DNA from: Amphiscolops sp. MND2022
Lineage: Eukaryota
DNA: 64,000 nt
Reading direction: 5' to 3'
NCBI GenBank assembly: GCA_964187785.1
Contig: OZ076409.1
Location: forward strand, 69,690,001 to 69,754,000
Under the pieces are notes generated by a model. The model had not been told where the DNA came from, did no database searches, and saw nothing but the letters and a program-made list of their open reading frames with translations. Within the stretch, counting starts at the first letter, position 1; every line of letters begins with the position of its first letter. The position numbers and the translations under genes were made by a program. Shown here piece after piece: positions 5,916 through 41,800 of the stretch.

Positions 5916-6512
5916 CTAAATAGGATTGTCGTGAACGTTTAGATCGGGGTAATCTCCGTTCATTTGGTTCACATATTGTTCATTTCTTAAGCTACCTTTT
6001 GCGTTGAGATTTCGCTGAACTTCGGAATTCGGTTCTGGTCTCTCAACCGGAACGTCCCATCCCTTTCTAGTCCTGTGTCCTGATTCGGCCATTATAACAT
6101 TTTGGATTTGAGGAAGTACTTGAGTACTTATTGCATCGTTAATGGCTCTCTGTATTTGGACACTCACGGAATTCATTATCTCATCCATTTCTCGTGAAAT
6201 ACGAGAGTTCAGCTCGCTAGACAATCTGTTTATTTCAGCACTAGAATCACCTGTGATAGAATTACGATCACACTCGGCATACGTCCTAGGTTCAACATTT
6301 CCCCTAGATCCACTTCCGTTTCTGCCCTCATTATCAGACTCATTACTAGCAAAGCTTCTTGATCCTCTAGGTAGATTGCTATTCAGACTACCTTCTCTTT
6401 CTCGTGCACCAAAATGGTTTTCGCCTAACATGATATCCAGATTTTCAATATCTGATAACATCTCAAGTCCTCTAGACTTTCTAGCTTTCTTTTGCTTTCT
6501 AGTAGTTGGCAT
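5916..6512 (-). other. Duplicated N-terminal 195 codons of gag in the 3' LTR, stopping just inside flanking DNA
   Basis: Peptide identical to gag 19256-20971 up to NVHD, diverging at the LTR edge (5927). Confidence 0.9.
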
Positions 6513-7820
6513 TGAAACAATTCCGAATCAATAATGAATTAATCAATACGGAAATAACAGCGTAGCCGTTTGGAAATCAATCTTTTCTAGAACAGTACAG
6601 TATGAATTGTGTCCCGCTCAGGCTAAACACCGGTATTTATACCCCTGAGCGAGTGACACTCACATATTTTACATATTTTCATCTAAGATTGACGTCGTAA
6701 GGTATGTAATGCACTTTGATTTTTACATATTTCTGGTACATAACAAGTATGGTTTCGAAAAAGTTGCATCATAAGCATTTCCGTTTACATATTTTCCACA
6801 TCATCGGGAAACATCAATAACATATTTCTGTGAAATCCTGGTTGGGAGAGTTCCTGACATATTTGTCTCCCAAAATATAACATCAAACAATCAACATAAC
6901 GGTACTTCAAACAACGTATCTATTCTACATATTATTGCAATGTCAACAAATGTTAGCCTCGTTGTCGGAATGCGAGGCTCGTAACACTGGTATGTAGTGT
7001 TAGCACGTGCCACCACGTGGTTATAGGTCAACGTAAGGGGAAGCAAATTCAAATAATACATGTCTAATCTATTTAAATATCACTGCATCATTAAATAAGG
7101 GTATCTCTCAAAAGGGCCGAAATTGGCCAAATCCTGATTAATGGTACAATACTAGGGGGAGAAAGGGTAAAAGACCTTATTCGGCCTTTGATCAGCATTT
7201 AGTTTATTCGGTCCGTTGAGGGGTGCGTTGGTATTATTTTAATATTAAAACACCTTTGAAATGATCCCCAACTAATATGGTTAACTATAAAGTACAGATA
7301 ATACAGCATCACTCATTACATCAAGACGGCCTAAACCGGCCATTTGACCAAGGTACAAAACAATTCATGGACATTAAGTTAATTGGCCGTATTCGGCCGC
7401 TACCAAATCAAAGCTATATTGCACTTGTGAATTGAAGCGCTGTGATTGGTTGAGGGAATGAGCTCAAGTGACGTTTTTGGATTATCGCTGAGCGTCACTT
7501 GAACTCGTTTCCTATACCGCTTTACAGTTGTTTATATTAGTACTGCTTTCGATTCAATCGATTTACATTTTAACTGCACTTTCACAAAGTAGCCTAATTT
7601 GGATATCTCCAAATTGTACAATCTCTAACAGACTAATATTAACTTCATCCAAATATGAAACTGTTACATGAACATACAAAACAACAACTAATCGTTAAAT
7701 AAAACTAGTTTTTAAGGTCCATAACCTGTATTCAGTATATTGGTAGTGTACTCGGTGTCGGGTTTTGTTCTCCTGTCGCTGTAGTATAGTTATTTCCGTC
7801 ACAGGCGGCAGCCTGCGACA
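5927..7820 (-). repeat. 3' LTR of element 1 (1894 bp)
   Basis: Direct repeat of 20386-22281 with a few substitutions and one 2-bp indel; TG...CA termini. Confidence 0.96.
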
Positions 7821-8517
7821 CAGCGGGAGCAATGAAAAGTAGACAACCTGCATTCAGTCCATTTATGTACGCTTCTCGTCTCAATTTGGTGACAAATTCA
7901 GGTTCCCCGCGCGGCGTTGATCTCTCCATGTACCAATTGATCTTCTCGTTTTTAATCTCGTCCACTGATTTCCCACATACCATGCACCCAGTATATCTCT
8001 GACTGCTCAGATTGTCATGGGGTCTGGTATTTTGGATGTGGTAGGACGCATAAAACCCGCTCATTGGTGGTTGGACTAAAGGGGTATCTTGACTGGGCCC
8101 TCTTTCGTGGTCCGGCGGCGACATCGGGGACTCTAGAATCGGTAAGATTGTATTGCACAGTTCGATGCGTGACTTTTCCATCCTCTTAGGAGGGGCATAG
8201 CACCTTTCTAAGTCGAAGTACTTGTGATCCATTTTTGGCGTCTTCTCAGCATTTGCACCGGATGTGCTTGGTCCAGCCACTGACACATCTTCTTCAGGTA
8301 TCTCCGATGTCATTATCCTTCCCCCAATGAGCATAGGGCTAGATGTTACTTCTCTCTCTATCCGCGCTATCAGCTGTTCCGTGTCGGTGGAACAATCCGT
8401 CTCCCAGTCTGACGCTTCGCTCTCACTACTCGATATGTAGATTACAGATTTCTCAGAGCCGTCTGAGTCGAATTCTTCCAAGTCAAATAACTTCCTTGCG
8501 AGATTGTATTTACTCAT
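7732..8517 (-). CDS. ORF-X of element 1: 261-aa accessory protein of unknown function (acidic N-terminus, CxxC), ending inside the 3' LTR
   Basis: Homologous to 36578-37396: GGRIMT/AGRAMT, SPMSPPDHERG/TPLSPPPHEQG, CMVCGKS/CIVCGKS, LRREAY/LRRRNAF, VSQAAACDGN. Confidence 0.8.
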   Translation of the reverse strand: MSKYNLARKLFDLEEFDSDGSEKSVIYISSSESEASDWETDCSTDTEQLIARIEREVTSSPMLIGGRIMTSEIPEEDVSVAGPSTSGANAEKTPKMDHKYFDLERCYAPPKRMEKSRIELCNTILPILESPMSPPDHERGPSQDTPLVQPPMSGFYASYHIQNTRPHDNLSSQRYTGCMVCGKSVDEIKNEKINWYMERSTPRGEPEFVTKLRREAYINGLNAGCLLFIAPAVSQAAACDGNNYTTATGEQNPTPSTLPIY

Positions 8518-8884
8518 GATGGCTTTCTTCGCTATTTTGAAGCTTGTAGATGCAACTGTATCGTGATGAAGTTTTAGGGTAGAATGAATTTGTCAAATCC
8601 AAAAATTTAGCCGAGTAAGGTGTTTTCCCGAAGTTTCCAATTTGGCGGTTAGACCTTCGGTTAATCGTCCTGATCTGTCATAAACTTTTCAGAATAGAAT
8701 TCCTTGATTTGTCGGCTCCCTTTGATAACATGATGTTTACCCCTCATCAGTGTCATCACTAGAAGAGGTGTGAATGACTCTCAGCTTATGAATATCAACT
8801 ACACCCTTCTCAAGTGGGTAATTAACGGGTCGCTTGTAAGCAATTAGCGGCACGCGTCACCAAAATTTCTCGTAAAGGCTCCAT

Positions 8885-8967
8885 CCAATCAGCGTTGAGC
8901 TTTGATAAATTGTAAAATTAAATAATAAAATGGCGAAACTAATAAATCCAAATGATTCAAGATGGCG
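8885..8967. promoter_or_regulatory. Candidate internal promoter between the divergent ORF-X and antisense gene
   Basis: CCAATCAG followed by TTGATAAAT and AAAATGGC, also present in element 2 (~37793-37860). Two YY1-like AA(A/G)ATGGCG motifs. Confidence 0.4.
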
Positions 8968-9580
8968 AAAATTCTAACTAAGGGTAACTAGGGTAACTGA
9001 ACAAAACGGCAAGACAAAATAGGGTAAACGTCCATGTTTGGCCAATAACTAGATAAGCTGTAAATACCAAAGTCCTTTGTACACTTCGCTGGCAGACTCC
9101 ATGTACAGAATAAATATGTAGATAATTTCATAATATTAGTCTGGTAATAATCTTCAGCCACGAACTCCAACTTTCAATTTTTTACATTAAAGTTCCAACC
9201 CAATTCCATTTCTGATCATTCCATATCCGCTTCTGCTATTTGTACTTATCCAACTGTCATCCATCCTTGTGTGTCCACAACTACACAACTGCTTCCTCCA
9301 GCTCTTCTCTCCGGAGTGTCCCAGATTTCCTTCTGTCTCCGTCGTAGTCAATTCAGCTCTACAAACCCTTCTTCTCAGCACAAACAACTTCCGTTGGAAC
9401 AACAACACTGAGGGAACATGTCTTCGAACACAGGTTGGTCTGATTTCCGTATATTGAACTAATTTAGCTTGATCAAGGCTAGACTTTGTTCAAGTGGGCT
9501 TCCTATTTCCACTAAGAAACGTGTGATATCACGCTTTGTTCAAATTTAAAGTACTTCCGGAAGATTTCTGACGCGGTGAA

Positions 9581-12500
9581 ATGGATTCTTTTCAAGGAAG
9601 CATACCGCCTAACTTTATCTCTTTTCGTTTAGAGAATCAGACAACTGAAATTGCCAGCACATCAGCCAACCCTTCTACAACTGTCCCGACAGTTAGTCTT
9701 CCAACTGAGATGGGATCGCAAATCCCACATCCTGATACGTCCCAAACCACGCTCAGCATCCAACCTGACGAAAAGGGGAATGAAAGTCGACCCGATGAAG
9801 TCACCTCCATTCATAGTGCAGACAGTGACTTGGACGTGACCATTTATGCCGAGAGTATGGTCCGACAACTAGAGAGTTCTCAGACACCAGACCGAACTCA
9901 ACAAGAAGCCACACAGCTTGATCCAAGTCAGGGTACGGACCCTGGTGTCCAAGAAGATTCGTCTGCCTCTAACACTGGGGAGGCTAGGAGGGCAAGCACC
10001 CCTTTGGTTACCGAAAGGGGGGAGGCTCCAACTGCTGATTTGTCTGCCCTAGAGTCTGCGCTGCGAGTAGTCGAGAGTTCTGGGTCCCAATTGGCAGAAC
10101 TTGTGGATGTTACTCAACCCGATACCAACATTGAGGGTGACTCCCTGGCACATCAGGACTACGATGCCGCATCATCCATTGGCGACGCTCCCCCTCTTCC
10201 TGGAGGAGAATGCAAGATTCGGTATCTGACTGATCCCAGTGGGGACGAAGGAGCTACTGATCAATCTAGCGTGGTGGTTCCTGTGGCCTTGTATGGTTAC
10301 ACTCCCTTCGCGCATGCCTCTGAAACTGAAGGAGGAGATGAGACCGCTTCGGAACTTCCTGTCCCTGGTACTAGTAGACAGGCCCCTGGACAAGCTGAGT
10401 CCCACCGGGAACCACCCCACCTTTCAGGCAGGAGTCGAGCTATCCTCAAAGAATACTTTGACGAGTCCCCTTCTGTACGACTTCCTGTAGGTCATACCAC
10501 TGTGTCGTTTACTGAGCCACAGGTGAACCATCTCCTTAGAGTCCTCACCGACGAGACTCTCAGCCGGTCCTTTTCGACCATGGAACAAATGGTCACAGAT
10601 GCAGTTCGTGGGAGACCCACTGTCACCCCATCACGAACTGCTCATTTCTTTGCAGGGAGGCGGGCTCAAACACCGGGTCCCGGTAGTATTGGAGACTCTA
10701 GCGGGAGTGACTCTGAAGGGGAAGTCACGTCAAAGGAGAGGGTTGCCGGATCATCGAGTTCGGAAGACACCGGAGATTCCTCATATTATGGGGAAAGCGA
10801 TGATGCTACTGAGCTGGACTTGATAGCGAAGTCCTTCAAGAAACCCGCTGAGACACATGGTTCGCTAGTTCCGCAAGCGTCTGGCTTGGATTCTCAGGCT
10901 GATACTCCAGAGTACAGCAGTCAAGATGCCACGCTCCTTGAAGTCAGGGACCAGGTCCGAGAAGGTGCCGCTGCCGGTTCGTCCAAGTCCAAGAGGAAGA
11001 GAGGCAACCGGAATCTCTCCAAACGAGGTGTCCCTATGCGAGAAGAGTTCTTCGCAAAGATCGGATGGACAAGGTCCTTCATTTCAGGCCCTGCTGACCC
11101 ACTCCATAATCCTCATATGGTTTGGTGTCATATCTGCAAGAAGAACTTCTCCATCAAATCTAAGGGCCCTTATGAGATATTGAGACACCATCGAACGGAG
11201 CGCCATCTGCGACGCGATCAACGCTGGCGCTATGAACATTTGCGGAGCACGGATCCAGTGACAGGGAAGGTGCAACACAGAGTCAGAGGTGGCAATGGGA
11301 AGTTGTTGTCCAAAGTTGAGCTGGCTAAGGAGTTGCCCAAATTTATCCACGTTGAGATCGTGGACATAGGAGAACGCTTCCCCTTTTATGAGGATTTCGT
11401 CAAAGGGTCAACCACTGCTTTGGTTACCCCGGAATCTCGCACCAAGACTCAGCTCTGCCTGGTTGGGGATTTCATCAAGAGCCAAGGCGATCTGATGGTT
11501 CTGCGAAATCTGTGGTCCCGGATGGGGTCATTTACCAATCATCAGGCCACCTTCAACGACTTTGATTGGGGGGAAGAGAGATTGTCGGTAAGCATTTGTT
11601 TGTTTCATCCGCTTAGGTTCCATTCCTTCTAAGGTTTCAAAAAGGTTTTGTTTCTAGGCGATCTTCCAACACTTCTTCGTCTGTTGCCTTGAGGACATAG
11701 CAGAGAATGTCAACACTCAGCAGTGCTTTGCTCTTGAGTTCGAGACCAAAGGGGTCTACAAACACATGTCCATCAAGTTCTGGAAGGGCTCCGAGCTTTG
11801 TAGAGTCTTCATATGCCGCAGCTCACAGATCACTACAGACGTGACAGGAGAACTTGGGTCTTTGTCCCGACTCCTCTCTGCCATATCTACCAAGCCTGGA
11901 ATTGTAGCCTGTTCTGGATGTCACTCTGAATTACCCAGGGCCATCGACGGGTCAGAGTACTACAAACAGGGGGTTCAAAGCTGTCTGCGCTTCGAACACT
12001 TCAGCCTGCCCAATCTCATGCACAAGACGAGCTATAGTGTTTTTGGGAAGATAGACTTCTTCTCCGTCCTTCGAGCCTTGATGGTCTCCCTGGGTGGGTC
12101 CCTCATGGAGGATTGGGTTCTCCGCAGCCCAGAACTTACCAAAGTATGTAGTTTCCTTGCATTTCTCTCATCGGAGTCATAGGCTTAGGTAGGGCTCTTT
12201 CATCCTATTCGTCTGGAATCCTCATGCGGCTTTATTTTACTTTCCAGGCTGTGACCAGTTGTAAGCTCGAAGTGACAACCTTGCCTGTTCTTTGTCGAGA
12301 ACTCATCGCCGAGTGGAAGAACGTGGTGCGGTACCTGACCACACATGCGCCATTGCAAGAAGGTCAAGGATCCCGAGGAAGGGTTAGATCTCACCTTTTC
12401 TCCTTTGAGTCACATGGGAATATAGGTCAATTTTCTTCATCTAATCGGTAGGGTCCAGTTTTTACCACGGGGTTGATGATAGTCTTGTTCCAGGTGCAGA

Positions 12501-13807
12501 GCTTTGAGTGGTTGGTGATATGCGACGAATTCTTCGTCGTCAAACTGGAATTCTTCAGTAGGATCGTCAACGATTGTAAGTATAAACTGTCGCAGCCTTA
12601 GTGAGGGTCTACCATCCTGAATTGGACAACAGTTTTGTTTTCAGTCGTCACCAGTTTCTCAGTCAGTCTACAGTATCGACGCGATTCGTCCTTCTACTTG
12701 TGTGGGGAAGTAAGCCGATTTCTCAGCCTGCTCTGTTCCCGTATATACACCCCTGACACTGCGCCCCTAGCAAACGCTTGGTTTCTCCTCTTGCGCTTTC
12801 AGACGAGCGAGGCCACCTTCCTTTCAGGAGACGAATACCTTGTCCGGCTTAAGCTAGCGAGTAAGGTTTCAGCCGCATGCAAAGCAAGAGCCGAAGGTCT
12901 CCATTTCGGCAAGAAATCAGAGCGCGCTGCTATACAAGCTACTGCTGAGACGGTAAAGGCTGATTTCGTCAAGGACAGCCAGCATTACATCCAGTTTGTA
13001 ATCAATGGAATTCCTCAAAGAACTGGGCTCAGCACTAATCTGGTGAAGGGGCTTGCTGCTTTTGACCCCTTTATTATGCTGAAGAGGCCAATGGATGTGG
13101 CCTTACGACATTTCGAGGTGTTGTACAGCAGCTTCGCAGTCCGATCTTGGGTCGATGATTCAAATGAGTCCCAGTGTCGGGATCAATATATCCAGCTGTT
13201 GGATCACCTCCGAACCGCCTACGGACCTGATTTCGATATCACCAGTGCGTCCGCCGATTTGATCGAGTTCTTGATGGGGCTCGAGTTTCTCCATGAACGT
13301 TCCCATCTCCTATACCTCTTCAAATTGAGCTGTTTGTGCACGACCGTCACCAGTCCTAGCTATCCAGATGTCGTCTTTGGGGAAGTTACTACCGCTGGTG
13401 GACAGAGCCGGTTCACTGACCTGATCCTGCCTTGTCAGAGTTATATGGCTAATGTCATTGGTTCTGTCGTCCGGAGCAGCGAGGACTCCAATCTGGCCAA
13501 ATTTTCGACTCTCTCCACATCGTTTGGTCGTTCTGCCTTCTCTCCCGACTATGACCCTTGGGCCTATGTGGATACTTTCGGTCGGTCGGGAATTTACAAA
13601 TCCCTCTTGTCCACTTACCGCAAGGCTGACTCTGCTCTAAAACGGGTTTCAGTCCAGGAAGACTTGGGAGAGAGCAGTACTGTGTGTGATCAATCTGCTG
13701 TGAAGTTTCCCAGTAGTAAGAAGCGAAGGAGAGGTAGGAGCGGCTCACGATCGTCTGCTTCCTCTGTTGCTGGGAGCCCCAGTAAAGATTCCTCCACTAA
13801 GGCCTGA
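9581..13807 (+). CDS. Antisense spliced gene of element 1, ~1290 aa: disordered acidic N-terminus, BED-type zinc finger, hAT-transposase-like body. Exons 9581-11587, 11658-12143, 12248-12382, 12494-12575, 12645-13807; possible upstream mini-exon 9418-9433 spliced to 9633
   Basis: GT-AG introns with pyrimidine tracts join the ORF fragments in frame (3873 nt, no internal stop). Internal exon lengths 486/135/82 nt and phases 0,0,0,1 are identical in element 2. Confidence 0.85.
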
Positions 13808-14054
13808 TTCTGTACATATGTATTTATGTACTTACGAACTGTAAACTTTGTTGATTTTCTGTTTTGTTGCCATATTTGTATTTCCATTCTGTTTTCCTGA
13901 TTTCTTGATCCCGTTGTTTATTTTTCCTGGAAGGGATCGTTGTGAAATGTCCCATTATTTATTCAGAAAAAACTTTGCTTGGGACTGAAAAAAGAAAAAA
14001 TGAGAGTGAGAAGACACTATTCACTGCTCCTTTTCGAGCAGAATTTAATCTTCC

Positions 14055-17000
14055 CTAGTATCTGAAGTCTTCTGAGTAGTTTGGGTTAGGGTTAGGCCTG
14101 AGATTATATTTCCCTCCTCTAGGGCTCAGACTTTCATTTCTAGCATCGCTTTCGGATATTTCGGGCACGATAATATCATCCCCCCTTTTTGGAGAGTTTT
14201 GTGCATCGTTTTCATTCATTGAATTTCTTTCTGAAAAAATTTCATCATTTTCCGGTCCACCTGCCGTACTCGGCAAAGAATTTTCTTGGTTTTTTGGGGA
14301 AACGGCCGGATTCGGCCAATCAGATTTGGTATTTTCTGTCACTGCAGTAGCTTTATTTCTTTCAGTGACGTCATCATCTAAGCGTTTATTCCGGCTGTGT
14401 GCCGCGTTGTCGTTGTTTAATTCTTCTCGCGTGATTATGTAATCCGCTTCGGTCTCGTCTACGTCATTTGCATTCGTTTCCGCCGTGTTCGGCTGTTCGG
14501 CATTCGGCACGCTAGTCGGAATAGTCTCGCTGTCTCGTGTAACTAGCTGCTCTCCAAAATCTGTTTCCCACGCTATGACGTATAGGTCGTCTTGCGGGAT
14601 GACAATTTCTTCGTCTGGCTGCAGACGTTGTTCTCGGAAATTGTCCTCAAGCGGTTGATTGGGAATAAACCTTTTAAGGCGAATGCGATGCAAAATTTGA
14701 GTTTTGTTCGTATTGATCCTTCGTACTATGTAGTTTTCATTTGGCAAAACCTTTTGGACTACAAATGGTCCAACCCAACGGTAATCGCGGAATGGAATTT
14801 TTGATCCTTGATGATCCGCTTTCGGCTGTAAGACGAAACAGTAATCATTCTCTTTCAATGGAGCAGCTTTTGCTTTGCGGTCGTAATATTCTTTGTACTT
14901 GATGTACGACTGCATAATGTTCTGCTTCGTTTTGTCAATTAGGATTTTTGTCCGGTTTTGGATTTCTTCTGCAAATTCGGTTGTAGGGTTGATCTTTTCG
15001 TTTGGATTATTTCCAAGCTTGTGATCCAGAATGTTATAGGGAATTCTGCCATGGAATACTCTCGTTGGCTCACAACCAATACTGGCATGATAACTCGTAT
15101 TATGATTAAGTACTGCTAATGGCAAATATTTATGCCATTGTCGGCGGTATTCCCCACATGCCATTTTGAGGTTTGTCTTTAATGAGGCATGGGTCCGCTC
15201 TAATTTCCCAATTGTTTGCGGGTGCTTTGTCGTTGCACATTTGAGTGTAATGCCCAAAATTTGCGTAACCTCCGCAATAATCGTAGAAGTGAATGCAGTA
15301 CCCTTATCAGTAATAAGAGTCGTTGGCAGATATGCATGCTTGGTCATTATGTCAATGAGCGCTTTTGCCACATTGATCGCTGATGCGTCTGTAAGGGGAT
15401 AAGCGAATAAATATCTGGAGAAAACATCAATTGCCGTTAGGACATTTTCATACCCTCCACTTGGGGGAAGATTCGGCAATAGGTCAATCTGCATGGCGTC
15501 TTCAGGTCCAAGGTCCCATTCGGGCGAGTTGAGCAGCTCAGGTGTGATCGTTGCGTTAGGGACTCTCTTGTCTCTGGCACATTGTTCACACCCTTCTACC
15601 CACTTTTTGACGTGTTTAGCCATGCTAGGGTAGTAATACCTTTGTCTGATTTCCTGCAACATTTTTGAAATCCCGGGATGTTTATGCGCTGTCCCGTGAA
15701 GGGAGTGGAGCAATTCCCGAAGTAGGTGTTGCGGGAGCAAAATTTGATGGTATTTAACATTCCCTGTTTCATCAAAATATTGCCTCGTCAGGATTTCGTC
15801 CTTGAGTACAATTCGTTCCAGATTATTTGCATAGTGTCTATATCGGGCATCCTGTTGCAGTATGTTTTCTGAATAGTCTTCATGAAGGAGCTTTGCCTTC
15901 AATTGTTGCAATACTGCATCTTTGGACTGCTCGATGATTATCTGGTTTGTTTTCTTTAATCGGACTTGGATGCCTGGTTGTTGTTTGACCAGATTGGTTG
16001 ACAGAGTTTCTATGGTAACAGTGGGTTCATCAGTCATTGGATTTTTCCTGATTGCTTCTTTTCTTGCCCAATACTGTTCCTCTGTCTCGTCATCATCATT
16101 CGTATAGAATATTTGTTCTTCCTGTGATACCCCCGCAGATTGAACATTTATCTCAATGGGTAAAGTTTGCACGTCTTCACGGATTTTCATGACTAATTTA
16201 TCCTTCGGATCTGCCTCCAATCGGGACAAATAGTCAGCTGCTGTGTTCTGTGCTCCCGGGATATGTGCTATGACAAAATTGAATTGAATCACATAATGGC
16301 ATGCATTCCACAGGGCTGGGGGTATTATTTTCGTTTGGAAAAATCTCGTAACGGCTTTGTTGTCGGTAAGGATAATGACCGGTTTGGGCGCACCCCAGAA
16401 TATATGTCCAAATTCTTTGAATGCAAAGTAAATTGCCAGAAATTCCTATGCATATATTGACATTTTGATCTGGGCTGGGGTGAAGGTTTTTGATCCATAG
16501 GCCACCGGTGCGTAGGATTTTCGGAGAGATGTGAATTTCTGGTTTGGATCGTCTTCTATTAAGACCGCATATCCAGCTGCACCAAAACTTGCATCAGTCA
16601 TTAGTGCGATTTGTTTGTTCGGGATAGGTTGTTGTAGGGCTAAATCGCAACATTTGTCGAGTGCCTTGTTGATTTCTTCGAATTGTTGGACTAATTCTTT
16701 CGATACTAGGACCTTTTCGTCACTTTTGAGCATCTTGTAGAATGGAGCAAGGCGTTCGGATAGTCTTGGGACATAATTCCTGTAGTAGTTCAAGAATCCC
16801 AAGTAGCGCTGCAAAGCCTTTTTCGACTTTGGGACTTTGGTCTTTTCCAGAAAGTTTTGCACGTTCTGTTTCTGGGGTTTGACGCCTTGCGGGGTAATAG
16901 TCCGTCCGAGAAAATCAATTTCTTTTGCACCGAAGTGACATTTGTGCATTGTCAACTTAAGGCCTGCTTCCTGAATGCATTTGAATGTTGCTCTCAGGTT

Positions 17001-19265
17001 CGTCATGAGGTGGTCGACATCATTGGCTGCGATGCCGATATCGTCCACATACTGGGCGCACTGATCCGCTTTAATGACTTTGTCGAGGTATTCCCTCATG
17101 AAACTCGAGAATGCGGATAGTGACCGACTAAGGCCTTGTGCCAAGCGTCTGTACGCGAATGTACGACTGGCAAAATTGAAAGCCAACATTTCAATTGAGC
17201 GTTGGTCGGCCATTGGTAGGCAGTGGTATGCCTGCGAACAGTCTAATTTACAGAACAGTTTTTTGCCTGCCAAGTGTTGGGCAGCATCAACCAAGGTGCT
17301 AACAGGGTGATTATTGTTGATATAATCATCCGAGATGAGGTTATTGATTTTTCTCAAGTCAACCAAAAGTCGTAGCTTCCCATTTGGTTTCTTTTGGGCG
17401 AATATTGGGCTTGCATACTTTGAGAACGGTAGTGTGGTTATTATGCCATATTTGTGCAACATGGCTAATTCGACTAGGATGTCCTCCTTCAGATTGATAG
17501 GAGCTGGAAGGCTTTGACTATAGGCTGGGGAATCGTCCTTAGGTGTCAGTTTCACTTTGAATTCCTCGTTCATGCCTATATCAAATCGGTGTCGTGCAAA
17601 GATGTCATGGAATTCCACTAACAGTTCCTCAATTTTCTCCTTCTCTTCAGGAGTAAGGGTGGAATCTTTCCAGTCAAAGTTTTCTAAGAATTTTGCACGC
17701 GATTCTGCGTCTGTGGTGGGGTCGAGTGTCTCCAGGTCCTGTAAGGCCTGTAACTCGCGTAGGATTCGTTTTTGTATGGGTGTGTGTTCCTCAGGATTTC
17801 CAGGGTTTTCTGGAGTTGGGAACCAATAATTTTCGGAGTTTTGTGGATTTCTATTGGTTTTGATGAGACTGCTGACATAATGGGCTGCTTGCTCCTGGTC
17901 ATTCTGCAAAAGGTGCCAGGTTGATGCCGGGTCTACCGGTTTGACATACTTCATTTGTTCTGGCGTCATGACAGAGAAATTGGCAATATGTAGTCCCTTT
18001 TTGAGTTTATAAGGGTGGTCTGTGAAGTTGCTCACTGGTATCGATATATTGCCGTCATTCAGAGTGACCAAGGCTGGGCAGAATGTGATGTCGCCTTCTT
18101 CATGTAGAAGGTCGCTCGGTTGCAAAATTCCAGTGACAGCATTCTCAGGGTACAGTAGGGAATTGGTCCTAATTAGGACTCTATCATTTGGCGGAATGGT
18201 TATCTCAATGGGATTGAGAATTGGTTCTAAGACATTTGAGTATTTATGGTCAGCTGTTTTGAGCTGCATTGAGAAGAACGGGAAGTTCAGTATTCCTTGT
18301 CTCATGTCCAGAACTGTATGATTTCGTTGAAGGAACATTAGGCCGATAATCGGACCTGTCAGGTGTTCCATGACTATAAAAATCTCATGAAACTCAATGT
18401 CACCAACTTCAAATTTGAGCTCTATGGTACTCTTAGGAGTTTCCAATTGCCCATTAGCAACCATTATTTGGAAATTTGGAGGCGGACCTTCCCGGATGAC
18501 AGATTGTGGAGATAGAAGTCGAATTTTCCGGAGGTCCATTTCAGGAATTGCACTGGACAGCGCTCCAGTGTCAATAAGTCCGTCTATGGTCAATTCCCCA
18601 AAGTCCATGGGGAAGTACAACATGCGTTTTTTGCATTTGAGATTGATGTTGGTTGACAGTGGTATACAGTCTGGTTCACCGTCACTGGTGATTAAGACAT
18701 TCTGGAACTGCTTCTCGTCTTATAGTGATTGTGGTATGGGTTGAGCAACGTCTTCATGGGTCTCGGTCCCTAATGGGTTTGGGAACACTGGATGGTTGGT
18801 GCCATCATTCATTTGCCAGTTTTCAACTAGTGCTCTGGTCTTTTTATTGTGGGTGATTGGAGGGTTCTCGTGGACCGTTCTATTATAGTGCTCGATGTCG
18901 TCTAAGACATATTGGAATTGTAGTTGTTCCTGGTTGTAGATTTCTGTGTCCCAATAGGGGTCTCTGCCGTAGTCTGGATCTATGTAGGTAGGGTTGTAAT
19001 TGTCAACCAGGGGAATAGGCCTGAATCGGGTAGTGAAGGTAGTAGTATAATCAGGGTCCCAAACAGGAATTGGTTTCTGGAATAAATGGGTGTTATTGTA
19101 GGTGATGATGGTAGCTTTTTCCATCTGTTGCTGCCAGACAACAGAGGGATAGCCCATCAATTGTTGATTGTATTGGTGGAAAGTTTGCGTTGGAGGGTCC
19201 GATCTGATGTATTGTCGGACAGATATTAGTTGATTGTATTGGAGTCGTGACGAAGTTAGTTTTTT
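14055..19265 (-). pseudogene. pol: pol of element 1 (PR, dUTPase-like, RT, RNase H, integrase) with two in-frame stops
   Basis: Motifs LIDTGA, YVDD, TDASF, TDNK, H-H-C-C, D..D..E and WVGPF. One frame throughout, with TAA at 18720-18722 and TAG at 16446-16448 (Lys of SIYAKEF in element 2). Confidence 0.93.
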
Positions 19266-20971
19266 GACTCATCATTGGAAGATGAGGCCTGTGAGTTGGA
19301 AGATGTTGATTTGTTTTGTGGTTTCTGCGCCTTTGAATTGGGTTTACCGTCATTAGCGTCATCTGGTCTGGTGCGTTTGGGTTTGAGATGCGCACCAGCA
19401 CCTTGCCAACATCTTTCTTCCGGGTGGTTCTTTTTACCACAAGTGCCACACTCCGGAAACGTCTTTTTCTGAGTTTGTTTGCCTTGTTGGGCATCTTTTT
19501 CCTTTTTCTTCTTCAATTTTTCACAGTCTTTGACCATATGGCCCTTCTCCTTGCAGTAGTTGCAAGTGATGTCCGACATTTGCCCAGTAGTTAGAGGAGT
19601 CTTGGATTTTGTTGTCGAGGAGGTCATTGTGGCCATTGGTAGGTCGTCTGATTCCTCAAGGGCATTTAGTTCTAACTCTCTCTCTAAATGAGCAACTATT
19701 TCGTCATAAGAGCCGTTTTCGAGTCTGGCCATGTTTACAGACCGCTTCAGTTTTGGTGGCAGTTTTGCGTAGAGCAAACTGTCAATCATTTTCTGCGCGT
19801 GATCCCCGAATGCTTTTTCTGCCCCTTGATTTAATTCTTCAAGGAAATCTGGCAGTTTCATCGTGTTGGGATCGAAGACTAGACGGTGCCATTTATGTTT
19901 GGCAGTCGCCTGTGATTCGGGTTTGACGTATTTTCGTCTGAATATTACCAATACGTCCTCTAAAGTCTGTCTATTGCTCGAGCTGATGTTCCGGAAGGTT
20001 TGGAGAGCATTCTTCCTCAGCAGTGAGTGGAAGTGATTTATTTTCATCTGTTCCGTCATTTCCGGTTGCATCTTGATCATCGTGTGGAACAGGTCCTCAA
20101 ACAGCTCGAATTTTTCACTCTTGCCATCAAAAGTCATTGTGTTTGAATTGACTGGGCGTATAGTGAGTTGTTGGGCTGTCGGTCTATTTTGCATTGTGGT
20201 CAAGACGTCTGCCAGTCGGGTGATGGGATCGGAGTCGGCAGCCGTAGCAATTCTCTCTTGTGCTGGGATCGTCGTGTCGAGCAGGGGAAGGTCATCATTT
20301 GATCTGTTGAGATGACTGGTGGATGGTATTCGTCCCGTGAGAAACTCAGGAACTTCGATTGGAGATTCGTTTTCTCCTGTCACCATGTCGTGAACGTTTA
20401 GATCGGGGTAATCTCCGTTCATTTGGTTCACATATTGTTCATTTCTTAAGCTACCTTTTGCGTTGAGATTTCGCTGAACTTCGGAATTCGGTTCTGGTCT
20501 CTCAACCGGAACGTCCCATCCCTTTCTAGTCCTGTGTCCTGATTCGGCCATTATAACATTTTGGATTTGAGGAAGTACTTGAGTACTTATTGCATCGTTA
20601 ATGGCTCTCTGTATTTGGACACTCACGGAATTCATTATCTCATCCATTTCTCGTGAAATACGAGAGTTCAGCTCGCTAGACAATCTGTTTATTTCTGCAC
20701 TAGAATCACCTGTGATAGAATTACGATCACACTCGGCATACGTCCTAGGTTCAACATTTCCCCTAGATCCACTTCCGTTTCTGCCCTCATTGTCAGACTC
20801 ATTACTAGCAAAGCTTCTTGATCCTCTAGGTAGATTGCTATTCAGACTACCTTCTCTTTCTCGTGCACCAAAATGGTTTTCGCCTAACATGATATCCAGA
20901 TTTTCAATATCTGATAACATCTCAAGTCCTCTAGACTTTCTAGCTTTCTTTTGCTTTCTAGTAGTTGGCAT
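19256..20971 (-). CDS. gag: Gag of element 1 (571 aa, two CCHC zinc knuckles); starts inside the 5' LTR
   Basis: Capsid-like TFDGKSEKFELFEDLF region; CNYCKEKGHMVKDC and CGTCGKKNHPEERC; lies upstream of pol. Confidence 0.93.
   Translation of the reverse strand: MPTTRKQKKARKSRGLEMLSDIENLDIMLGENHFGAREREGSLNSNLPRGSRSFASNESDNEGRNGSGSRGNVEPRTYAECDRNSITGDSSAEINRLSSELNSRISREMDEIMNSVSVQIQRAINDAISTQVLPQIQNVIMAESGHRTRKGWDVPVERPEPNSEVQRNLNAKGSLRNEQYVNQMNGDYPDLNVHDMVTGENESPIEVPEFLTGRIPSTSHLNRSNDDLPLLDTTIPAQERIATAADSDPITRLADVLTTMQNRPTAQQLTIRPVNSNTMTFDGKSEKFELFEDLFHTMIKMQPEMTEQMKINHFHSLLRKNALQTFRNISSSNRQTLEDVLVIFRRKYVKPESQATAKHKWHRLVFDPNTMKLPDFLEELNQGAEKAFGDHAQKMIDSLLYAKLPPKLKRSVNMARLENGSYDEIVAHLERELELNALEESDDLPMATMTSSTTKSKTPLTTGQMSDITCNYCKEKGHMVKDCEKLKKKKEKDAQQGKQTQKKTFPECGTCGKKNHPEERCWQGAGAHLKPKRTRPDDANDGKPNSKAQKPQNKSTSSNSQASSSNDESKN
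19259..19265 (-). promoter_or_regulatory. -1 ribosomal frameshift slippery site A-AAA-AAC, element 1
   Basis: TCA AAA AAC TAA at the gag end. The -1 frame is open (KLTSSRLQYNQLISVRQYIRSDP...) and joins pol. Confidence 0.8.
20374..20385 (-). promoter_or_regulatory. Primer binding site TGGTGACAGGAG, element 1
   Basis: Starts with TGG directly after the LTR's terminal CA; the same 12-mer is present in element 2. Confidence 0.85.
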
Positions 20972-22281
20972 TGAAACAATTCCGAATCAATAATGAATTA
21001 ATCAATACGGAAATAACAGCGTAGCCGTTTGGAAATCAATCTTTTCTAGAACAGTACAGTATGAATTGTGTCCCGCTCAGGCTAAACACCGGTATTTATA
21101 CCCCTGAGCGAGTGACACTCACATATTTTACATATTTTCATCTAAGATTGACGTCGTAAGGTATGTAATGCACTTTGATTTTTACATATTTCTGGTACAT
21201 AACAAGTATGGTTTCGAAAGGTATTTGCATCATAAGCATTTCCGTTTACATATTTTCCACATCATCGGGAAACATCAATCACATATTTCTGTGAAATCCT
21301 GGTTGGGAGAGTTCCTGACATATTTGTCTCCCAAAATATAACATCAAACAATCAACATAACGGTACTTCAAACAACGTATCTATTCTACATATTATTGCA
21401 ATGTCAACAAATGTTAGCCTCGTTGTCGGAATGCGAGGCTCGTAACACTGGTATGTAGTGTTAGCACGTGCCACCACGTGGTTATAGGTCAACGTAAGGG
21501 GAAGCAAATTCAAATAATACATGTCTAATCTATTTAAATATCACTGCATCATTAAATAAGGGTATCTCTCAAAAGGGCCGAAATTGGCCAAATCCTGATT
21601 AATGGTACAATACTAGGGGGAGAAAGGGTAAAAGACCTTATTCGGCCTTTGATCAGCATTTAGTTTATTCGGTCCGTTGAGGGGTGCGTTGGTATTATTT
21701 TAATATTAAAACACCTTTGAAATGATCCCCAACTAATATGGTTAACTATAAAGTACAGATAATACAGCATCACTCATTACATCAAGACGGCCTAAACCGG
21801 CCATTTGACCAAGGTACAAAACAATTCATGGACATTAAGTTAATTGGCCGTATTCGGCCGCTACCAAATCAAAGCTATATTGCACTTGTGAATTGAAGCG
21901 CTGTGATTGGTTGAGGGAATGAGCTCAAGTGACGTTTTTGGATTATCGCTGAGCGTCACTTGAACTCGTTTCCTATACCGCTTTACAGTTGTTTATATTA
22001 GTACTGCTTTCGATTCAATCGATTTACATTTTAACTGCACTTTCACAAAGTAGCCTAATTTGGATATCTCCAAATTGTACAATCTCTAACAGACTAATAT
22101 TAACTTCATCCAAATATGAAACTGTTACATGAACATACAAAACAACAACTAATCGTTAAATAAAACTAGTTTTTAAGGTCCATAACCTGTATTCAGTATA
22201 TTGGTAGTGTACTCGGTGTCGGGTTTTGTTCTCCTGCCGCTGTAGTATAGTTATTTCCGTCACAGGCGGCAGCCTGCGACA
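20386..22281 (-). repeat. 5' LTR of element 1 (1896 bp)
   Basis: Direct repeat of 5927-7820; followed by the PBS on the minus strand. Confidence 0.96.
21093..21100 (-). promoter_or_regulatory. TATA box TATAAATA of the element 1 LTR (also 6634-6641)
   Basis: About 120 nt upstream of the gag ATG; the same octamer lies upstream of gag in element 2. Confidence 0.6.
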
Positions 22282-31283: not shown

Positions 31284-31297
31284 AGAAGGTGTTATTG

Positions 31298-32906: not shown

Positions 32907-32927
32907 TACATATTCTTGCTGCCTAAA

Positions 32928-34873: not shown

Positions 34874-35521
34874 TTAATTCAATAAATGACCACATAAAAA
34901 CACTTGGTACAAACAATGGCTATTGTCGTGACTATTGGTCATAATGTCTTCTTCATGACCATCGTCACTAGACTGAGAGTTCTCTGAATTTCTCCTAAAG
35001 TAGTCTTGTCGACTACTGGTTGCCATATTAAGCTTTGAGTTACCTTTCCAAGCGTTTTTAACGAATTTCGCTTCGGTGGTCCTGTTAAGTCCACTGGACC
35101 TCTGGCCCACTTCTTCCCGAAACACTGGATTTTGGTTGGAAACCAAGTTTCTAATATCAGGCAAAACCTTTTCAGTGATTGCTGAATTAATGACATCAAC
35201 CAGCTGAGAATTAAGTTCTCTTCTCAGTTCATCAATTTTCTTTGTAATCTCAGAATTAACGAGCCTCATAGTCTCAACCGTCGATTCACTATTTTCTTTA
35301 CTGTTTGAGTCTAAAAGTGACCTGAAATCCTCACTATTTTGCAGTGGGTCTCCTCTAGTCCTATCTGACCCTAGGTCTATTTCACCATTCCTATCAGAGT
35401 CATTTCCTAATTCATTTCTTGGATATGATCCAAGCATTACGTCTAAGTTTTCTGTATCAGACATGATGTCTAATTGCCTAGAGCGTCTTTCCTTAGCTCT
35501 TTGCTTTCTAGTAGAAGGCAT
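34874..35521 (-). other. Duplicated N-terminal 199 codons of gag in the 3' LTR, reading ~16 codons into host DNA
   Basis: Identical to gag 48477-50195 up to NSHD. Confidence 0.9.
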
Positions 35522-36669
35522 TGAAGAAATATTTGCTCAGGTAAGAGTATATTCGAGCTTGTATCAAATATCCCAACTTGAACTGAGTATTCAAACAATA
35601 ACAGAACGATATATCACTAAAGCAGTCTACTAAAGCGAAGGTTGACTTGTAGTCTCAAAATGATTAGAACACTGATGGTGATAGATAGCGGTGAGTTGTA
35701 GGTTTGTAATCATCAATAATCGTCAAGATTCATCCCTTGGGACTAGTGGTCCCCGTATTTATAGTCCTTGCATCATGACATGCAGTAATATGTATAGTCA
35801 TGTTACTAAAATTAGCAACTTATATACTAACGTCACTATGACGTAATGCTGTCAAACTAAATATAGACACAAGTACGGGCAAAAGGCCCTGGGAAGTTTA
35901 CGTCACATGTTCCTGTAATTCTAAAATTAGCATCTCTACGTGTATTAGATCTAAAAATAGATAAAGAGGAAGGAAAATGGGGGGGAAGAGGCAGTACGCC
36001 TTTCATATTAATGACAGCAAGACTTGTGCTGAGCTCATACTTATATGCACCAATAGTATTGCACCTAGTTAAGATTAATAATCATCAAAGTAAATACACC
36101 GACAATAAGTGGACCGGCAGTCTAATATGACTTGCGTCGCCGCAAAGGCCAGCAAGTAAGTGAATAAGAAAGCTCGCATGTGATTGGCTAATTAAGGTTG
36201 CGGACTACGCGTTCGAATTGACCAACGCGGCGGACAATTCGAACGCGTTTCCTTTACCTTGCCAGTTATCTTGATTATTACAGCTACATTTCATCGATAA
36301 TTAATACTTTCTGCACTACTGGTTTACATGTAGAATACACAAGCATAAAGACGTGAATATATATATAAAGTGTACATGCGCAGTGTATAAAATCAACAAA
36401 CAGAATACAATGAATGCTATATCTATGTAATGAATACTAAAATGCAATTGGTACTACAAGTCATACTAAGACCAGTGGACCTTCGGTCCGTAATAGCATA
36501 AATTCACATTCTAATTGTTTGTGAAAAAAATAGAAGTCTTGCACTAAGTTTCCCAGCAGATCAGCGGTATACGCGGCCTAAAGTGGCAGTGTTCCTGGCA
36601 TATATCTCAGGTCGTTCTCATTCACCATCACTTGGTAGCTGTTTCCATCACAGGCGGCAGCCTGCGACA
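34924..36669 (-). repeat. 3' LTR of element 2 (1746 bp)
   Basis: Direct repeat of 49598-51343; only one substitution noticed by eye (near 36308). Confidence 0.96.
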
Positions 36670-37396
36670 CTCCCCGGGGGATGACAGTAAACGAGCCTGC
36701 AAGCATTCCTGCCTGAAAGGCGTTTCTTCGTCTGAGTCGGGTATTGTACGTCTCACCCACGAGGTGAGTCTGCTCCAAAAAATTGAAGGTGATCTCCTCT
36801 CGTATTGTTTCAAAAGACTTCCCACACACTATGCAGTCCCCAAAGGCGACTTGGTTCGGCAGCCCACACACCCCGCTGTTGCTTATGGCAATCCCAGTAA
36901 TATGTGCGTTATTGGGCTGATAAGGGAAGTCATCATCTGACCACGGGTTGCCAGCGTTATTGACATTACACCCTTGCTCGTGCGGAGGTGGAGATAGTGG
37001 GGTGTCTGGAATTGGGCTAATTCTTGCACACTCAGCAATGGGTCGCTCCTGACTGAGTCTTCTGGAATAGCTAGGAGGGTGAATGCCCAATATCTGGTCT
37101 ACAAGGTCGCTAGGGGGCTCTGTGTCCGTCTTTATTGACCTGCCATACAATTCCTCCAGTAGCGTTAAGTCATCATCGTCCGTGAATTCAGTGGTCATGG
37201 CACGTCCCGCTATCCCCAGTGGTCGAGTGGACTGAGCCTCGCTGTAACAGGCGATCACTTCTATGTCGCTGTCATAACCTTTCTCGTCTGGGGCTTTTTG
37301 TGGATCGTCCACGTCCATGTCTTCTTCCTCTGAGGATAGATAAGACAGGCTAACCAAGGGGCTAATTAAATCTTCTACTGCAAATTGTAGAGACAT
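36578..37396 (-). CDS. ORF-X of element 2: 272-aa accessory CxxC protein ending inside the 3' LTR
   Basis: Homolog of 7732-8517 in the same position and orientation. Confidence 0.8.
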   Translation of the reverse strand: MSLQFAVEDLISPLVSLSYLSSEEEDMDVDDPQKAPDEKGYDSDIEVIACYSEAQSTRPLGIAGRAMTTEFTDDDDLTLLEELYGRSIKTDTEPPSDLVDQILGIHPPSYSRRLSQERPIAECARISPIPDTPLSPPPHEQGCNVNNAGNPWSDDDFPYQPNNAHITGIAISNSGVCGLPNQVAFGDCIVCGKSFETIREEITFNFLEQTHLVGETYNTRLRRRNAFQAGMLAGSFTVIPRGVSQAAACDGNSYQVMVNENDLRYMPGTLPL

Positions 37397-38867
37397 ATCT
37401 GTTTGAAATCTCTTTAGTAAGATTTTCTTAGCAATTCTTGAGTATGAAAGTGAGCTGCTGATTTGTAGATTGAGATTCAGAAGAATGGCTACCTCGGGCT
37501 GATCGACCTTAGGTCAGAGGGTCGAAACTTCGCGGGAAAATAAGTTAGGGAAAGTTTCCCTGCAGCCCTCTTTGGTTTCTTAACATTTCCTTATTAAGCG
37601 GGTTCCCTTCTCAATTTCGTTTTGATGATCAGCCGCTTGTAAAGTTGATAAGTGCTTGAGTTTGATCTCAAGTGGTTGTATTAACTATTGAAGAGGTGAC
37701 AATGGGTGATGAGATTGTTTATCATCACTCATTAACACTAGTGAAGTGTCATCAAAGACCGTCGGTCTCAGCGGCTAGCAAAGACCAACTGTCCAATCAG
37801 AGCGTGTTGATAAATGAATAAATAATTCTGAATGAATTTGAATGAAAATGGTAAAATGGCATAAATGGATGAAATTAATAATGGTAATGATGGTAACTCT
37901 AATACTGGAACAAAGGAATGGAAAAGAAATGATTGCTGAATGTACATCACTGGCAGGTTCTGTAACACTGAAGATCATAGTGTATAGGTAATTAAAAGAG
38001 CTAATAGCTTTGGTAATAATAAATGACTTGTATTTTGCCACGACGTCCTTTGATGTAAATGAAATAAACGTAAAATACGATTGAGTAATAATCAGTCTTG
38101 AGAGTCAAGTTGAACGGTAAGAAGTAAAACTTGTAAGTGAGACTTTCAGTCTAATTGCCGTAAAGCATAGTAAACCAGTTTGCTATATTTCACAGTTCAC
38201 AGTACGACTTTCAAATTATTAATCCTTTGTTACATTTTGCATTCCCAATTCTAATTCTATCATTCAACAGCAGTTTTAGATCCCCAAATCTGCACAAAAT
38301 ATTTCCTGCTTGGATAGTTCTTCTAGTTACATCTTCTCGTTGGACTTCGTTTCCAGGACTACTGGTCTAATTGTCCCTAGATCGACGTAGAGTCCACTTT
38401 TGAGACTTCAATCTCGGTTCAGAATTCTTCATCTAGTTCACCCTTCTTGTTTCTCCTAGACAACATTGAACTATTCTTCTACGAGTATTCCAACTTGTTG
38501 ACAGTACTCCCGTCCAAAGTTGTTCATTCCTCGAGATTCTACTAATTGGACTAGCAGTCTAATTGGCATAGGTCACCCTTCCAACAGTATCCGCCGTCTT
38601 ACGACTTTGTTTCAGTCTGCTCATCCTTCGCGTCACTACTCCGATTCGGACAGACCAAGAATCCTTTCAGTCAGCCACGTTTTGCTCCACCAATTCTGTT
38701 CTCCATTTGGATAAACATCAGGTTGGTTCTTTCAACTTATTTTGTCAATTTTGAGCTTGATCAGGGCTTCCCATTGACTAGTTTTCACTTCCTCCATCGT
38801 GAAATATTCAACCATAGGTATGAACAAATAATAAGCTTGCTTTCGAAAGTCTTTCAAACGCGATAAG

Positions 38868-41800
38868 ATGGATTTCTTTAACGGAAGTGGATCGCGAAAA
38901 TTTATTTCTTTCCGTTTAGGCAAAGAAATGGACGGCCAACCAGAACAAAACGTCACCGAACAGATGGAAATTGACTCCCCAACAGTTGGACAGATGTTAG
39001 AGTCTGAGAACAGAGGGTCGCCAACGGACATAAGATCTATAGTTGAGCTGTCTTCCAATACGGACACTGAAAGCTGCGAAGCCTACATCAGGCGTACAGC
39101 TGAGTTGCTTGAGAGCGCTGAGCAAGATCCCGCTAGTCGTGCAACTGAGATTCCTGTTGAGGCAAAGTCAAGTGTGAGTGAGTTGGTTGCTGTTACTCCT
39201 GCGCTGAATGAGATGATCCCCGAAGTCCAACTTACAGAAAGCGTCCCTAGAGTCGTCTTCCTGGACAAATCCGATTCGCAAGAAGGGACGAATAACACCA
39301 CCATCGGAAGACAGGACCTTACGTCAGCAAGCAAAGTAGTTGACCAAAGCCTTATGGCATCTAATCCTGAAGTCGGGGTTGTTGCTACTACCACTGAGGG
39401 CCCGTCTCAGCCTGCTAACATAGGGCTAGTGGAACAAGTCCTTGAGGAGCCGCAAGTTACTCCCAACCTTCAAGGAGCACAGGAAGAGAGACAAGAGATC
39501 GATGCTTCTGGGTCTGGTGATCCGCAAGTCAGCAAAGGGCCAATGGACTACCGGTACCAAACAGATGAAGACTCTTGCTTTGAGATGGAGACCGACACCG
39601 GATCTATGGCTAGGTCTACCTTGGGACAAGCGCTGTATTGCCCGGCAAAGGTTCGTGAGATTTCTTGCCGCGATGAATCTAGTCATGATTCAAACGTTGC
39701 CGATTTGCCACCCATCACTGATCCGCCACCGTTGTCAGGTACCAGCAGGGTTATCATCAAACAATGTTTCACAGAAACAAACCCTATCTGCCTTGATCCA
39801 GGACACCCTGTCATTGCGCTAAATCAGGATCAAATTACCAGCATCCTCAGAATTGTAGCAGACGAAAGTGCCCGAGCGTCTTTTGAGATGCTTAGCAGCG
39901 TAGTGGAACGGGCGAGCCGATTGAACTTGGGTAGTCCTGCAAAAACTGCTTCTAGAAGGCGTGTTCCTTCGATGTCTGGCCATGATACTGACACAGATAT
40001 CGGAAGTGATTCCGTAGCTACCTACTCCACACGTAGAGGCGGCGCAAGTTCAGGCATGACCAGTGAGGCTGAATCCCAACCGGACTTCCAATCAAGTGTA
40101 GCGATGCCTGCTCCTCCGACCACTGCCAGCAATCAACAGGTAGACTTAGAGACTGACCCACATTCTCCTGCCGTGTCCAGCCCTGGGGCTCAAACCCTCG
40201 CCAACGTGAGACAGGAGGCTATTAACGAGCAACGCCAAGCCCGGAGACAAACTTCATCTCGCACTCGACCTAGGGGCCAAGCACGACCCAGGAGACGAAT
40301 AGGCCGAGTGATGAAGGAGGAGTACTTCGAGACAATGCCTTGGACTAGAACTTTCGTGTCTGGGCCAGTTGATCCGAAATGGAACAAGCACAAGATCTAC
40401 TGCCAGATCTGCAAGTGCAATGTCTCAATCCGTGCAAAGCGTCCAAAGGAAATCCTGTGACATTTCGCGACGGAGCGTCATCTGCGTAAAGATCAGCGCT
40501 GGAGGTATGAGTACCTCACTATTGAAGACCCCCTTACTAAGCGACGCAGATACCAAGTGAGAGGTCAAGATGGTAAAGTGCTCTCCAATTATCAACTCCA
40601 GCTGGAACTGCCTCACTTCATTAACTGCGAACTAGTAGACATTGGGGAGAAGTTGCCATTCTACGACGAGGCAATGGCAGGCGTGGATTATATGGCATCG
40701 TCACCGCAAAATCGTGCCAGACTGCAAATTTCTGTGCTCGGCTGTTTCTTACCATTGTCTGGAGACGTCCAAGTCCTGCGTGGTCTCTGGCAACAAATTG
40801 GCATTGCACTGAATCATCAGGCCATCACCAGTGATATCGACTGGAGCACAACTAGACTCTCAGTAAGTAGTCTCTTCACGTCTGATTGACTTCTAGTCCT
40901 ATCCCTATATCATGCAAGCTTGACTAGATTTGATAAGTCACAGTCCATGATTTGAACAATAGTTCTTGAGTGGGCACATGTTCCGGTTCGTACTAATCTA
41001 AAGATGTGTTTAAGGTGTTGTTCCATCATCTATTCACACAAATCATTCCAATCATTGGCAATGATATCCTGACGTCCGGACAATTCTCTGTAGAATTCGA
41101 ACCACAGGGGGTTTTCCTCTTGCTTCACGTCAGGTTCTGGAAAGCTGACAAATTGTGCCGGGTCTACTTACTGCGAACCGGCAGGGCCAGTGGACAAACA
41201 TCAGCCGAAGTCAGCCTTGTGTCTACCCTTCTTGCAGCGATATCTGCTGAGGCTGATCTAGTATGCTGCTCTGGGGCTACATATGGCCTAGTCCATCTGT
41301 TAGATCGGTCCCCACTCACCAGACATGGGGTACAGCGACCAACCACTTTCGACGAGATTGCGATCAAGAAGTTGATGCACAAAGACAGTTTCTCCGTGTT
41401 TGGACGCATTGACTTCTTTTCAGTGTTACAGTACTTGGTTGTCTGCCTGAGTGGAAGTCTAGAGATGGAATGGACTCTCTTCACCCCTGAGTTGACTAAG
41501 GTAAGTCCCTCAGTCTACGTGCCTAGTACCGCCCGAAGCTTGGTCCGGTTTGACGTGGGGTTTTCAATTTAGGCCATTAAAACTTGCAAGCTTGACGTGT
41601 CCACAATCCCAAAATTGTGTCAGGAGTTGATGGCTAACTGGAAAACGGTGATCACCTACCTTTCCGAGCATTCACCTCAACAGCAAATGCAGGGAGTCAG
41701 AAACCAGGTTGGTCAATTTGCGACAGCTAGACTCATAGTCCCTAGTAGGGCAAATCTCGATGGCTTTCATTTCTTTTCAGCCCCAAAACTTCGAACGATC

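Follow-up and report, generated by a model that had tools for sequence, protein, structure and literature searches.

Among the systems described so far, the closest to the one reported here are the antisense open reading frames (ORFs) of the plant Ty3/Gypsy retrotransposons Retand (TRP28/PF04195), Grande and RIRE2, which have the same place and orientation; according to the main text of PMC11963269, they occur in nearly all copies and a DNA-binding regulatory role has been proposed for them. The present locus lies in a 64,000-nucleotide stretch (the window) of the Amphiscolops sp. MND2022 assembly GCA_964187785.1, contig OZ076409.1, positions 69,690,001 to 69,754,000. It contains two Ty3/Gypsy long terminal repeat (LTR) retrotransposons, element 1 (E1) and element 2 (E2), each carrying an antisense gene, predicted to contain introns, whose protein probably derives from a hAT transposase. 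In 64 of 71 loci the gene shares with the Retand ORFs its place between pol and the 3' LTR. In contrast, the plant ORFs carry a plant-only domain, PF04195, to which Pfam found no match in the window family, and the window family has a six-exon gene, a BED-like finger, an apparently whole hAT scaffold and an additional sense ORF; the word 'intron' is absent from the main text of PMC11963269.

Three further groups invite comparison. Host-domesticated hATs (CGGBP1-like, ZBED, PRKRIR/THAP12, ZMYM1, GTF2IRD2, FAM200 and SLEEPER) likewise reuse a finger with a hAT-like body for purposes other than cut-and-paste transposition, and the CGGBPs, as the text of PMC8097297 has it, arose independently and bind varied motifs. 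However, these are fixed host genes, whereas the window gene travels in many copies aboard a mobile retroelement, and in a global profile test its protein stands further from hATs than hAT subfamilies stand from one another. By function, the gene may be likened to the accessory sequence-specific activators VANC of VANDAL and TnpA of Spm, the latter with a transposase-derived DNA-binding domain (10.64898/2026.08.24.746577 and PMC13547354, in the text available). VANC and TnpA belong to plant DNA transposons and fold differently, a search of the elements studied here revealed no array of a cognate motif, and 'retrotransposon' is absent from the main text of the anti-silencing preprint (10.64898/2026.08.24.746577). 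Active hATs (Hermes, Ac, Tip100/PRKRIR-type and hAT-19) share the order predicted here of finger, dimerisation helices, RNase H core, helical insertion and C-terminal helix. Unlike them, the window protein has a 470-aa acidic N-terminus and a C-terminal extension, is without the second Asp, CxxH, TRW and ERxFS, and is flanked by LTRs with 5-bp duplications instead of inverted repeats with 8-bp duplications. Searches of an open-access library found no report of an LTR element with an antisense gene derived from a hAT, although supplements and Repbase-type reports could hold a description.

The antisense gene is far beyond chance and under purifying selection, as its junctions and substitution pattern show. 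Searches of the 1.07-Gb genome yielded first-look candidates numbering 7,889 and 6,618. From each set 150 were scored, and 142 of the 150 scored finger-exon matches were without a stop. Sixty-nine loci were hand-picked from the ranked lists to span the diversity, making 71 with E1 and E2, and in 64 of these the retrieved stretch contained an integrase on the other strand. Across five scored exons of the 69 loci, donors were GT/GC in 244/252 and acceptors AG in 254/259 (498/511 ends), against backgrounds of 11% and 6.6%, respectively. Among 14 pairs, the ratio dN/dS was 0.02-0.22 in those with measurable synonymous divergence (dS), which was saturated in the rest. In addition, precise intron loss at seven junctions in six loci (L255, L256, L261, L271, L081 and L262) verifies how these exons join and may be a trace of recombination with spliced antisense RNA. 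Two trivial origins were discarded: the gene does not overlap pol, which rules out a chance ORF on its back, and position and exons are common to deeply diverged lineages, which rules out an independent hAT insertion in one copy. Integrase and exon-6 distances are correlated (rho 0.74 over 52 loci; permutation maximum 0.145), a pattern that would fit a single old capture. The exon-6 profile matches 813 clusters at 50% identity, including ten divergent relatives without names; because the best own-genome identity of P0135 and P0173 is 41% and 31%, relatives probably occur in other hosts. Long fused or intron-free exon-6 relatives (677-2000 aa) were sought and none was found.

In E1 the gene spans 9418-13807 on the + strand, with six predicted exons encoding 1,278 codons plus the stop; an earlier sequence-only reading had confined the protein to 11030..13600 and missed two small exons. 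The start is the least certain part of the model: the exon 1 donor CAG/GTTGG was found in 33/35 loci, 20 of these 33 have an in-frame ATG no more than 22 nt away, and an in-frame ATG at 9581 is an alternative. The motifs quoted in that reading are real and lie on the + strand of both elements, namely the finger, FALEFETKG..MSIKFW / FSVEFEPQG..LHVRFW, LAAFDP / LASFDL, the pair HLLYLFKLSCLC / PLLFSCFKLACLC and the two basic patches. The E1 and E2 proteins are 30-41% identical in exons 3 and 6, and the E2 gene has an in-frame stop at 40458-40460. The protein has an N-terminal CCHH finger of the BED/TTF type, with near-invariant ligands (C in 68/68, C in 67/68, H in 68/68 and H in 66/68 loci). Its N-terminus, described earlier as about 480 aa, acidic and disordered, is indeed acidic (74 D+E against 38 K+R over 464 aa) and holds a conserved island of about 75 aa. 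Past the gene stop (E1 13808-13850 and equivalents), TGTA occurs within 14 nt in 55/69 loci and TGTAHATA within 45 nt in 36/69, counts made without a shuffle control; we take these to resemble a Pumilio or cleavage-factor site.

Where did this protein come from? Derivation from a hAT transposase is likely but not proven, and it rests on converging weak evidence. Predicted folds of two separate parts of the protein each match Hermes, collinearly and with weak scores, at its residues 176-237 and 364-609; the second match comes from the helical region predicted for exon 6. The language-model atlas neighbours of both parts are hAT-related. Four of ten hand-picked segments place collinearly on the PRKRIR/ZMYM1 profile. 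The finger aligns with that of CGGBP1-like hATs (E 0.02-0.025) and finds its best match in the fingers of three hAT profiles, yet below Pfam thresholds.

Several results weigh against this ancestry. Pfam, run on the window ORFs and two alignments, found no hAT family, and four alignments searched against the sequences of solved structures retrieved nothing relevant. HH-align outside the finger did no better than reversed controls while its positive controls worked. A global profile test that separates known hAT subfamilies at z 5-11 gave this family z 0.2-2.0, or -1.0 to 0.4 once the finger was removed, for PRKRIR, CGGBP1-like and Ac-type profiles, a set that left out the likeliest donors ZNF862/C17orf113 and Buster/FAM200. 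On the structural side, no fold match was significant alone and unrelated chains topped each list; integrases ranked above Hermes for the core model, Foldseek with the exon-6 model returned no hAT among the matches listed, and a wide structural search with the exon 2-3 model returned generic helical bundles only among the matches listed. The hAT scaffold of the sequence-only reading is supported in part, by weak Hermes matches in the right order but by no significant profile similarity beyond the finger. The genome itself contains Ac-type, PRKRIR/ZMYM1-type and many CGGBP1-like hAT transposases with long open frames (L104-L110, L118 and L156-L235); named relatives of the hAT transposons in this genome point, weakly, to an invertebrate animal as host. 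None of these loci is detectable as the donor: hidden Markov models of the family against ORFs of 37, then 20, of them gave nothing significant, and PF14291 and PF18658 found no match in the genome in a search that its control showed to be uninformative.

The negative profile tests with working positive controls, together with the weak structure scores and the ranking of integrases for the core, are what would be expected if nothing beyond the BED-like finger came from a hAT and the remainder were another RNase H-like or a novel helical fold, drawn from a Mutator- or P-type transposase or from a lost host gene. We consider this improbable, as two non-overlapping parts independently retrieve Hermes with collinear order and spacing and both have hAT-related atlas neighbours.

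The protein is very unlikely to cut DNA, judging from its residues, because on the inferred register the second Asp is Ser, the Glu site is Pro, and CxxH, TRW and ERx[FW]S are gone. In the structural register, model residue 235 coincides with the first catalytic Asp in Hermes (triad D180/D248/E572) and the integrases, where Glu or Asp occurs in 60/61 loci; the sequence register favours a Glu two residues further, present in 51/62 loci. In the registers adopted for the other sites, the second Asp is Ser in 63/68 loci and the catalytic Glu is Pro in 95/112. Exons 3-4 contain no conserved CxxH and no TRW (the W319-equivalent tryptophan), and ERx[FW]S, found in 110/120 true hATs, occurs in 1/150 family proteins, there at another site. 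According to the text of PMC4763223, CxxH is needed for hairpin formation. An active transposase was rejected as a candidate, an intact DDE triad, CxxH and terminal inverted repeats with an 8-bp duplication all being absent. The catalytic erosion and lost ERxFS proposed from the letters alone are hence supported on this mapping, and the claim that the DE residues are missing is correct only in part, the first site having stayed acidic.

What, then, might a cutting-dead protein do for its carrier? Our proposal, tentative and held at slightly less than even confidence, is that it would bind DNA sequence-specifically and serve the element as an activator or anti-silencing factor; given hAT ancestry, an activating role is slightly favoured. 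In this scenario, an ancestral Gypsy element would have captured a whole hAT transposase gene in one event, and the ability to cut would then have disappeared, with the finger, the dimerisation helices and the fold retained. Transcription of the gene would start in the internal spacer, and the antisense orientation would preserve the introns, as reverse transcription copies the unspliced sense genome. The protein would enter the nucleus by means of its basic patches, the finger would bind motifs within the element, and the acidic N-terminus would recruit transcription or chromatin machinery. hAT fingers and dimerisation domains confer sequence-specific DNA binding in the text of PMC8097297 and PMC10368747, and transposases activate cognate copies while domesticated ones lose DDE in that of 10.64898/2026.08.24.746577. 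Cognate motif arrays were sought in 12 elements: E1 has seven AATATGT copies upstream of the TATA box (6640-6930), a feature not general across the 12. The LTRs of the E2 clade have a repeated CTAWWTTTAG-like motif, which resembles a MEF2 site.

The evolution of the gene bears on its possible roles. It evolves about five times as fast as integrase; in pairs whose integrases differ by a dS of only 0.09-0.32, dS in the gene is saturated, and L101 is 92-97% identical to E1 in pol but 61-73% in the gene. Because near-identical integrase or pol accompanies such divergent genes, the gene moves between lineages as a cassette. Comparison of E1 with L101, L096, L103 and L092 assigns separate histories to pol, the antisense gene, ORF3/U3 and the remaining LTR, and the linkage of gene and LTR is not tight.

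Such mosaics speak to a targeting role, already among the options of the sequence-only reading, in which the disabled protein would anchor the integration complex at selected sites in host DNA, and to a role in bringing that complex into the nucleus. The gene adjoins integrase in 64/71 loci, the protein has a DNA-binding finger and basic patches, and Pfam on the window ORFs found no chromodomain on pol. However, near-identical integrases are paired with gene alleles at saturated dS, the L101-E1 contrast is of the same kind, and a separately made antisense protein would presumably not be packaged within Gag-Pol. Cassette swapping independent of integrase somewhat weakens this option, to which we assign a low probability.

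The persistence of deeply diverged alleles on near-identical pol backbones could point to a repressor that limits the copy number of its own element or excludes competing lineages, the diversity of alleles serving as a self/non-self label; the antisense proteins of HTLV are regulatory in the account of PMC11963269. The family is very abundant for an element so restrained (7,889 first-look candidates). Domesticated hATs include repressors, but a long acidic region is more typical of activators, and overall a repressor seems unlikely. Fast evolution and cassette movement fit an arms race better than an integrase partner, without separating activation from repression. The same fast turnover, and conserved Cys, His and acidic residues unconnected to hAT catalysis, would also suit a post-transcriptional role, as an RNA-binding protein or small-RNA silencing suppressor with an inactive RNase H fold at its base. 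The finger and the patches resembling nuclear-localisation signals indicate DNA and the nucleus instead, positive evidence of RNA binding is lacking, and such a role appears very improbable.

In addition to Gypsy elements, a DNA transposon of 35-38 kb also carries the gene. It came to light at three of the seven loci that lack integrase, and has inverted repeats, 2-bp duplications and an ORF of the CACTA type. Its 35.3-kb copies are 99.6-99.8% identical, with long terminal inverted repeats beginning CCCCAG, 2-bp target duplications and a 654-aa ORF in which DUF1258 is above the cut-off and Transposase_21 and DUF4218 are weak; the antisense gene is intact and pol is reduced to its tip. A 29-base piece of the repeat has 169 genome matches, and at least seven gene matches lie between facing repeats among the first 100 listed. 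Among 25 loci of the clade to which these belong, 14 have integrase, eight a DNA-transposon arm, none both, and three were assigned to neither. A second allele (L237, L313, L314 and L325) lies within EnSpm/CACTA-type ends 94% identical to those of the first. As the two transposon-borne alleles are saturated at synonymous sites against each other and both nest in one Gypsy clade, EnSpm/CACTA transposons appear to have captured the gene twice. A polarised test within the DNA transposon gave no sign of selection on the gene, which is therefore possibly passive cargo there: amino-acid changes in the decayed and intact copies were 19-21 vs 5-9 for the first allele, with the non-coding arm alike (84 vs 18), and 7 vs 5-6 for the second, with synonymous changes almost nil. 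Separately, L302:4328-5218 and L302:6593-7132 show weak SET-domain matches below the cut-off (E 0.075 and 0.015), possibly spliced chromatin-modifier cargo.

E1 is a young Ty3/Gypsy element, and the carrier family is large and recently active. LTR pairs are 99.6% (E1) and 99.9% (E2) identical, both elements have TG..CA termini and a common primer-binding site, and 5-bp target duplications flank them (AGGAT and GCTAT, respectively). Pfam on the window ORFs recovered gag, then protease, reverse transcriptase, RNase H and integrase, the Ty3/Gypsy order, with stops at 18720-18722 and 16446-16448 in E1 pol and an open frame of 1,690 aa in E2. The gag frame starts inside the LTR (20386-20986 in E1; 49598-50210 in E2), 128-242 nt past a TATA box found upstream of gag in 11/12 elements, and reads through the primer-binding site, the first ~200 codons of E1 gag lying within the 5' LTR. 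Between pol and the 3' LTR, both elements place the + strand gene and a short sense ORF3, arranged head to head, the end of ORF3 falling within the 3' LTR and, in E1, replacing a clear polypurine tract. ORF3 has an acidic N-terminus and a CxxC motif and no Pfam match; its hydrophobic-then-acidic stretches presumably resemble SUMO-interaction motifs. Elsewhere in the window, several dispersed repeat families with inverted copies occupy 23400-33720 and 53900-54500. The coordinates of all features are given in Table 1.

Table 1. Features of the two carrier elements, the antisense gene and the DNA-transposon copies (window coordinates unless a contig is named)
Feature	Position	Strand	Basis or remark
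E1, Ty3/Gypsy LTR retrotransposon	5927..22281	-	LTR pair, target duplication, Pfam
E1 3' LTR	5927..7820	-	
E1 ORF3, second accessory ORF	7732..8592	- (sense)	ORF list; 286 aa stop to stop
E1 spacer, ORF3 to antisense gene	8593..9417		Putative bidirectional internal promoter, by position only
Exon 1	9418..9433	+	ATG + 13 nt; predicted from donor
Exon 2	9633..11587	+	Acidic low-complexity region, zinc finger, predicted helices
Exon 2 acidic low-complexity region	up to 11026	+	
Conserved island, acidic N-terminus	near 10406-10640	+	~75 aa
Exon 2 basic patch	near 10985-11026	+	
BED/TTF-like finger	11066..11206	+	W..C-x2-C-x16-H-x5-H; ligand conservation
Exon 3	11658..12143	+	Predicted helix, three strands and helix of RNase H-like core
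First acidic site, Glu	11736-11738 (or 11742-11744)	+	Exon 3
Second-Asp site, Ser	11913-11915	+	Exon 3
Exon 4	12248..12382	+	45 codons; putative start of helical insertion domain, without TRW motif
Exon 5	12494..12575	+	82 nt; phase 1 end
Exon 6	12645..13807	+	All-helical region, family-specific C-terminal extension with basic tail
Putative catalytic-Glu site, Pro	13364-13366	+	Exon 6
E1 pol	14055..19268	-	Pfam; protease, reverse transcriptase, RNase H, integrase
E1 gag	19256..20986	-	Pfam
E1 5' LTR	20386..22281	-	
E2, architecture as E1	34924..51343	-	LTR pair, Pfam, target duplication
E2 LTRs	34924-36669 and 49598-51343	-	
E2 ORF3	36578-37513		
E2 antisense gene	38920..43218	+	Exons 38920-40862, 41015-41500, 41573-41707, 41781-41862, 42074-43218
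DNA-transposon copies, 35.3 kb	G000:C2:29298732-29334034 and C2:56408257-56443517		Loci L236, L292, L293, L297, L298, L302-L305

Transposase domestication is known from hosts; here the retroelement itself appears to have domesticated one and to have retained, under strong selection, a hAT scaffold that is complete but disarmed, in a family numbering thousands of candidate copies. The role of antisense accessory ORFs in Gypsy elements is a general question, for which the window gene offers a recognisable DNA-binding module, and the many natural combinations of allele and LTR make binding and activation directly testable. The broadest version, namely that a clade of LTR retrotransposons in animals turned an entire DNA transposase into a sequence-specific, intron-containing anti-silencing factor of its own, a portable silencing-escape module across transposon classes, traded as a cassette and twice captured by giant CACTA transposons, is speculative and on balance doubtful. 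If the protein is indeed an anti-silencing factor, counter-defence of the VANC/TnpA type would extend to retrotransposons outside plants.

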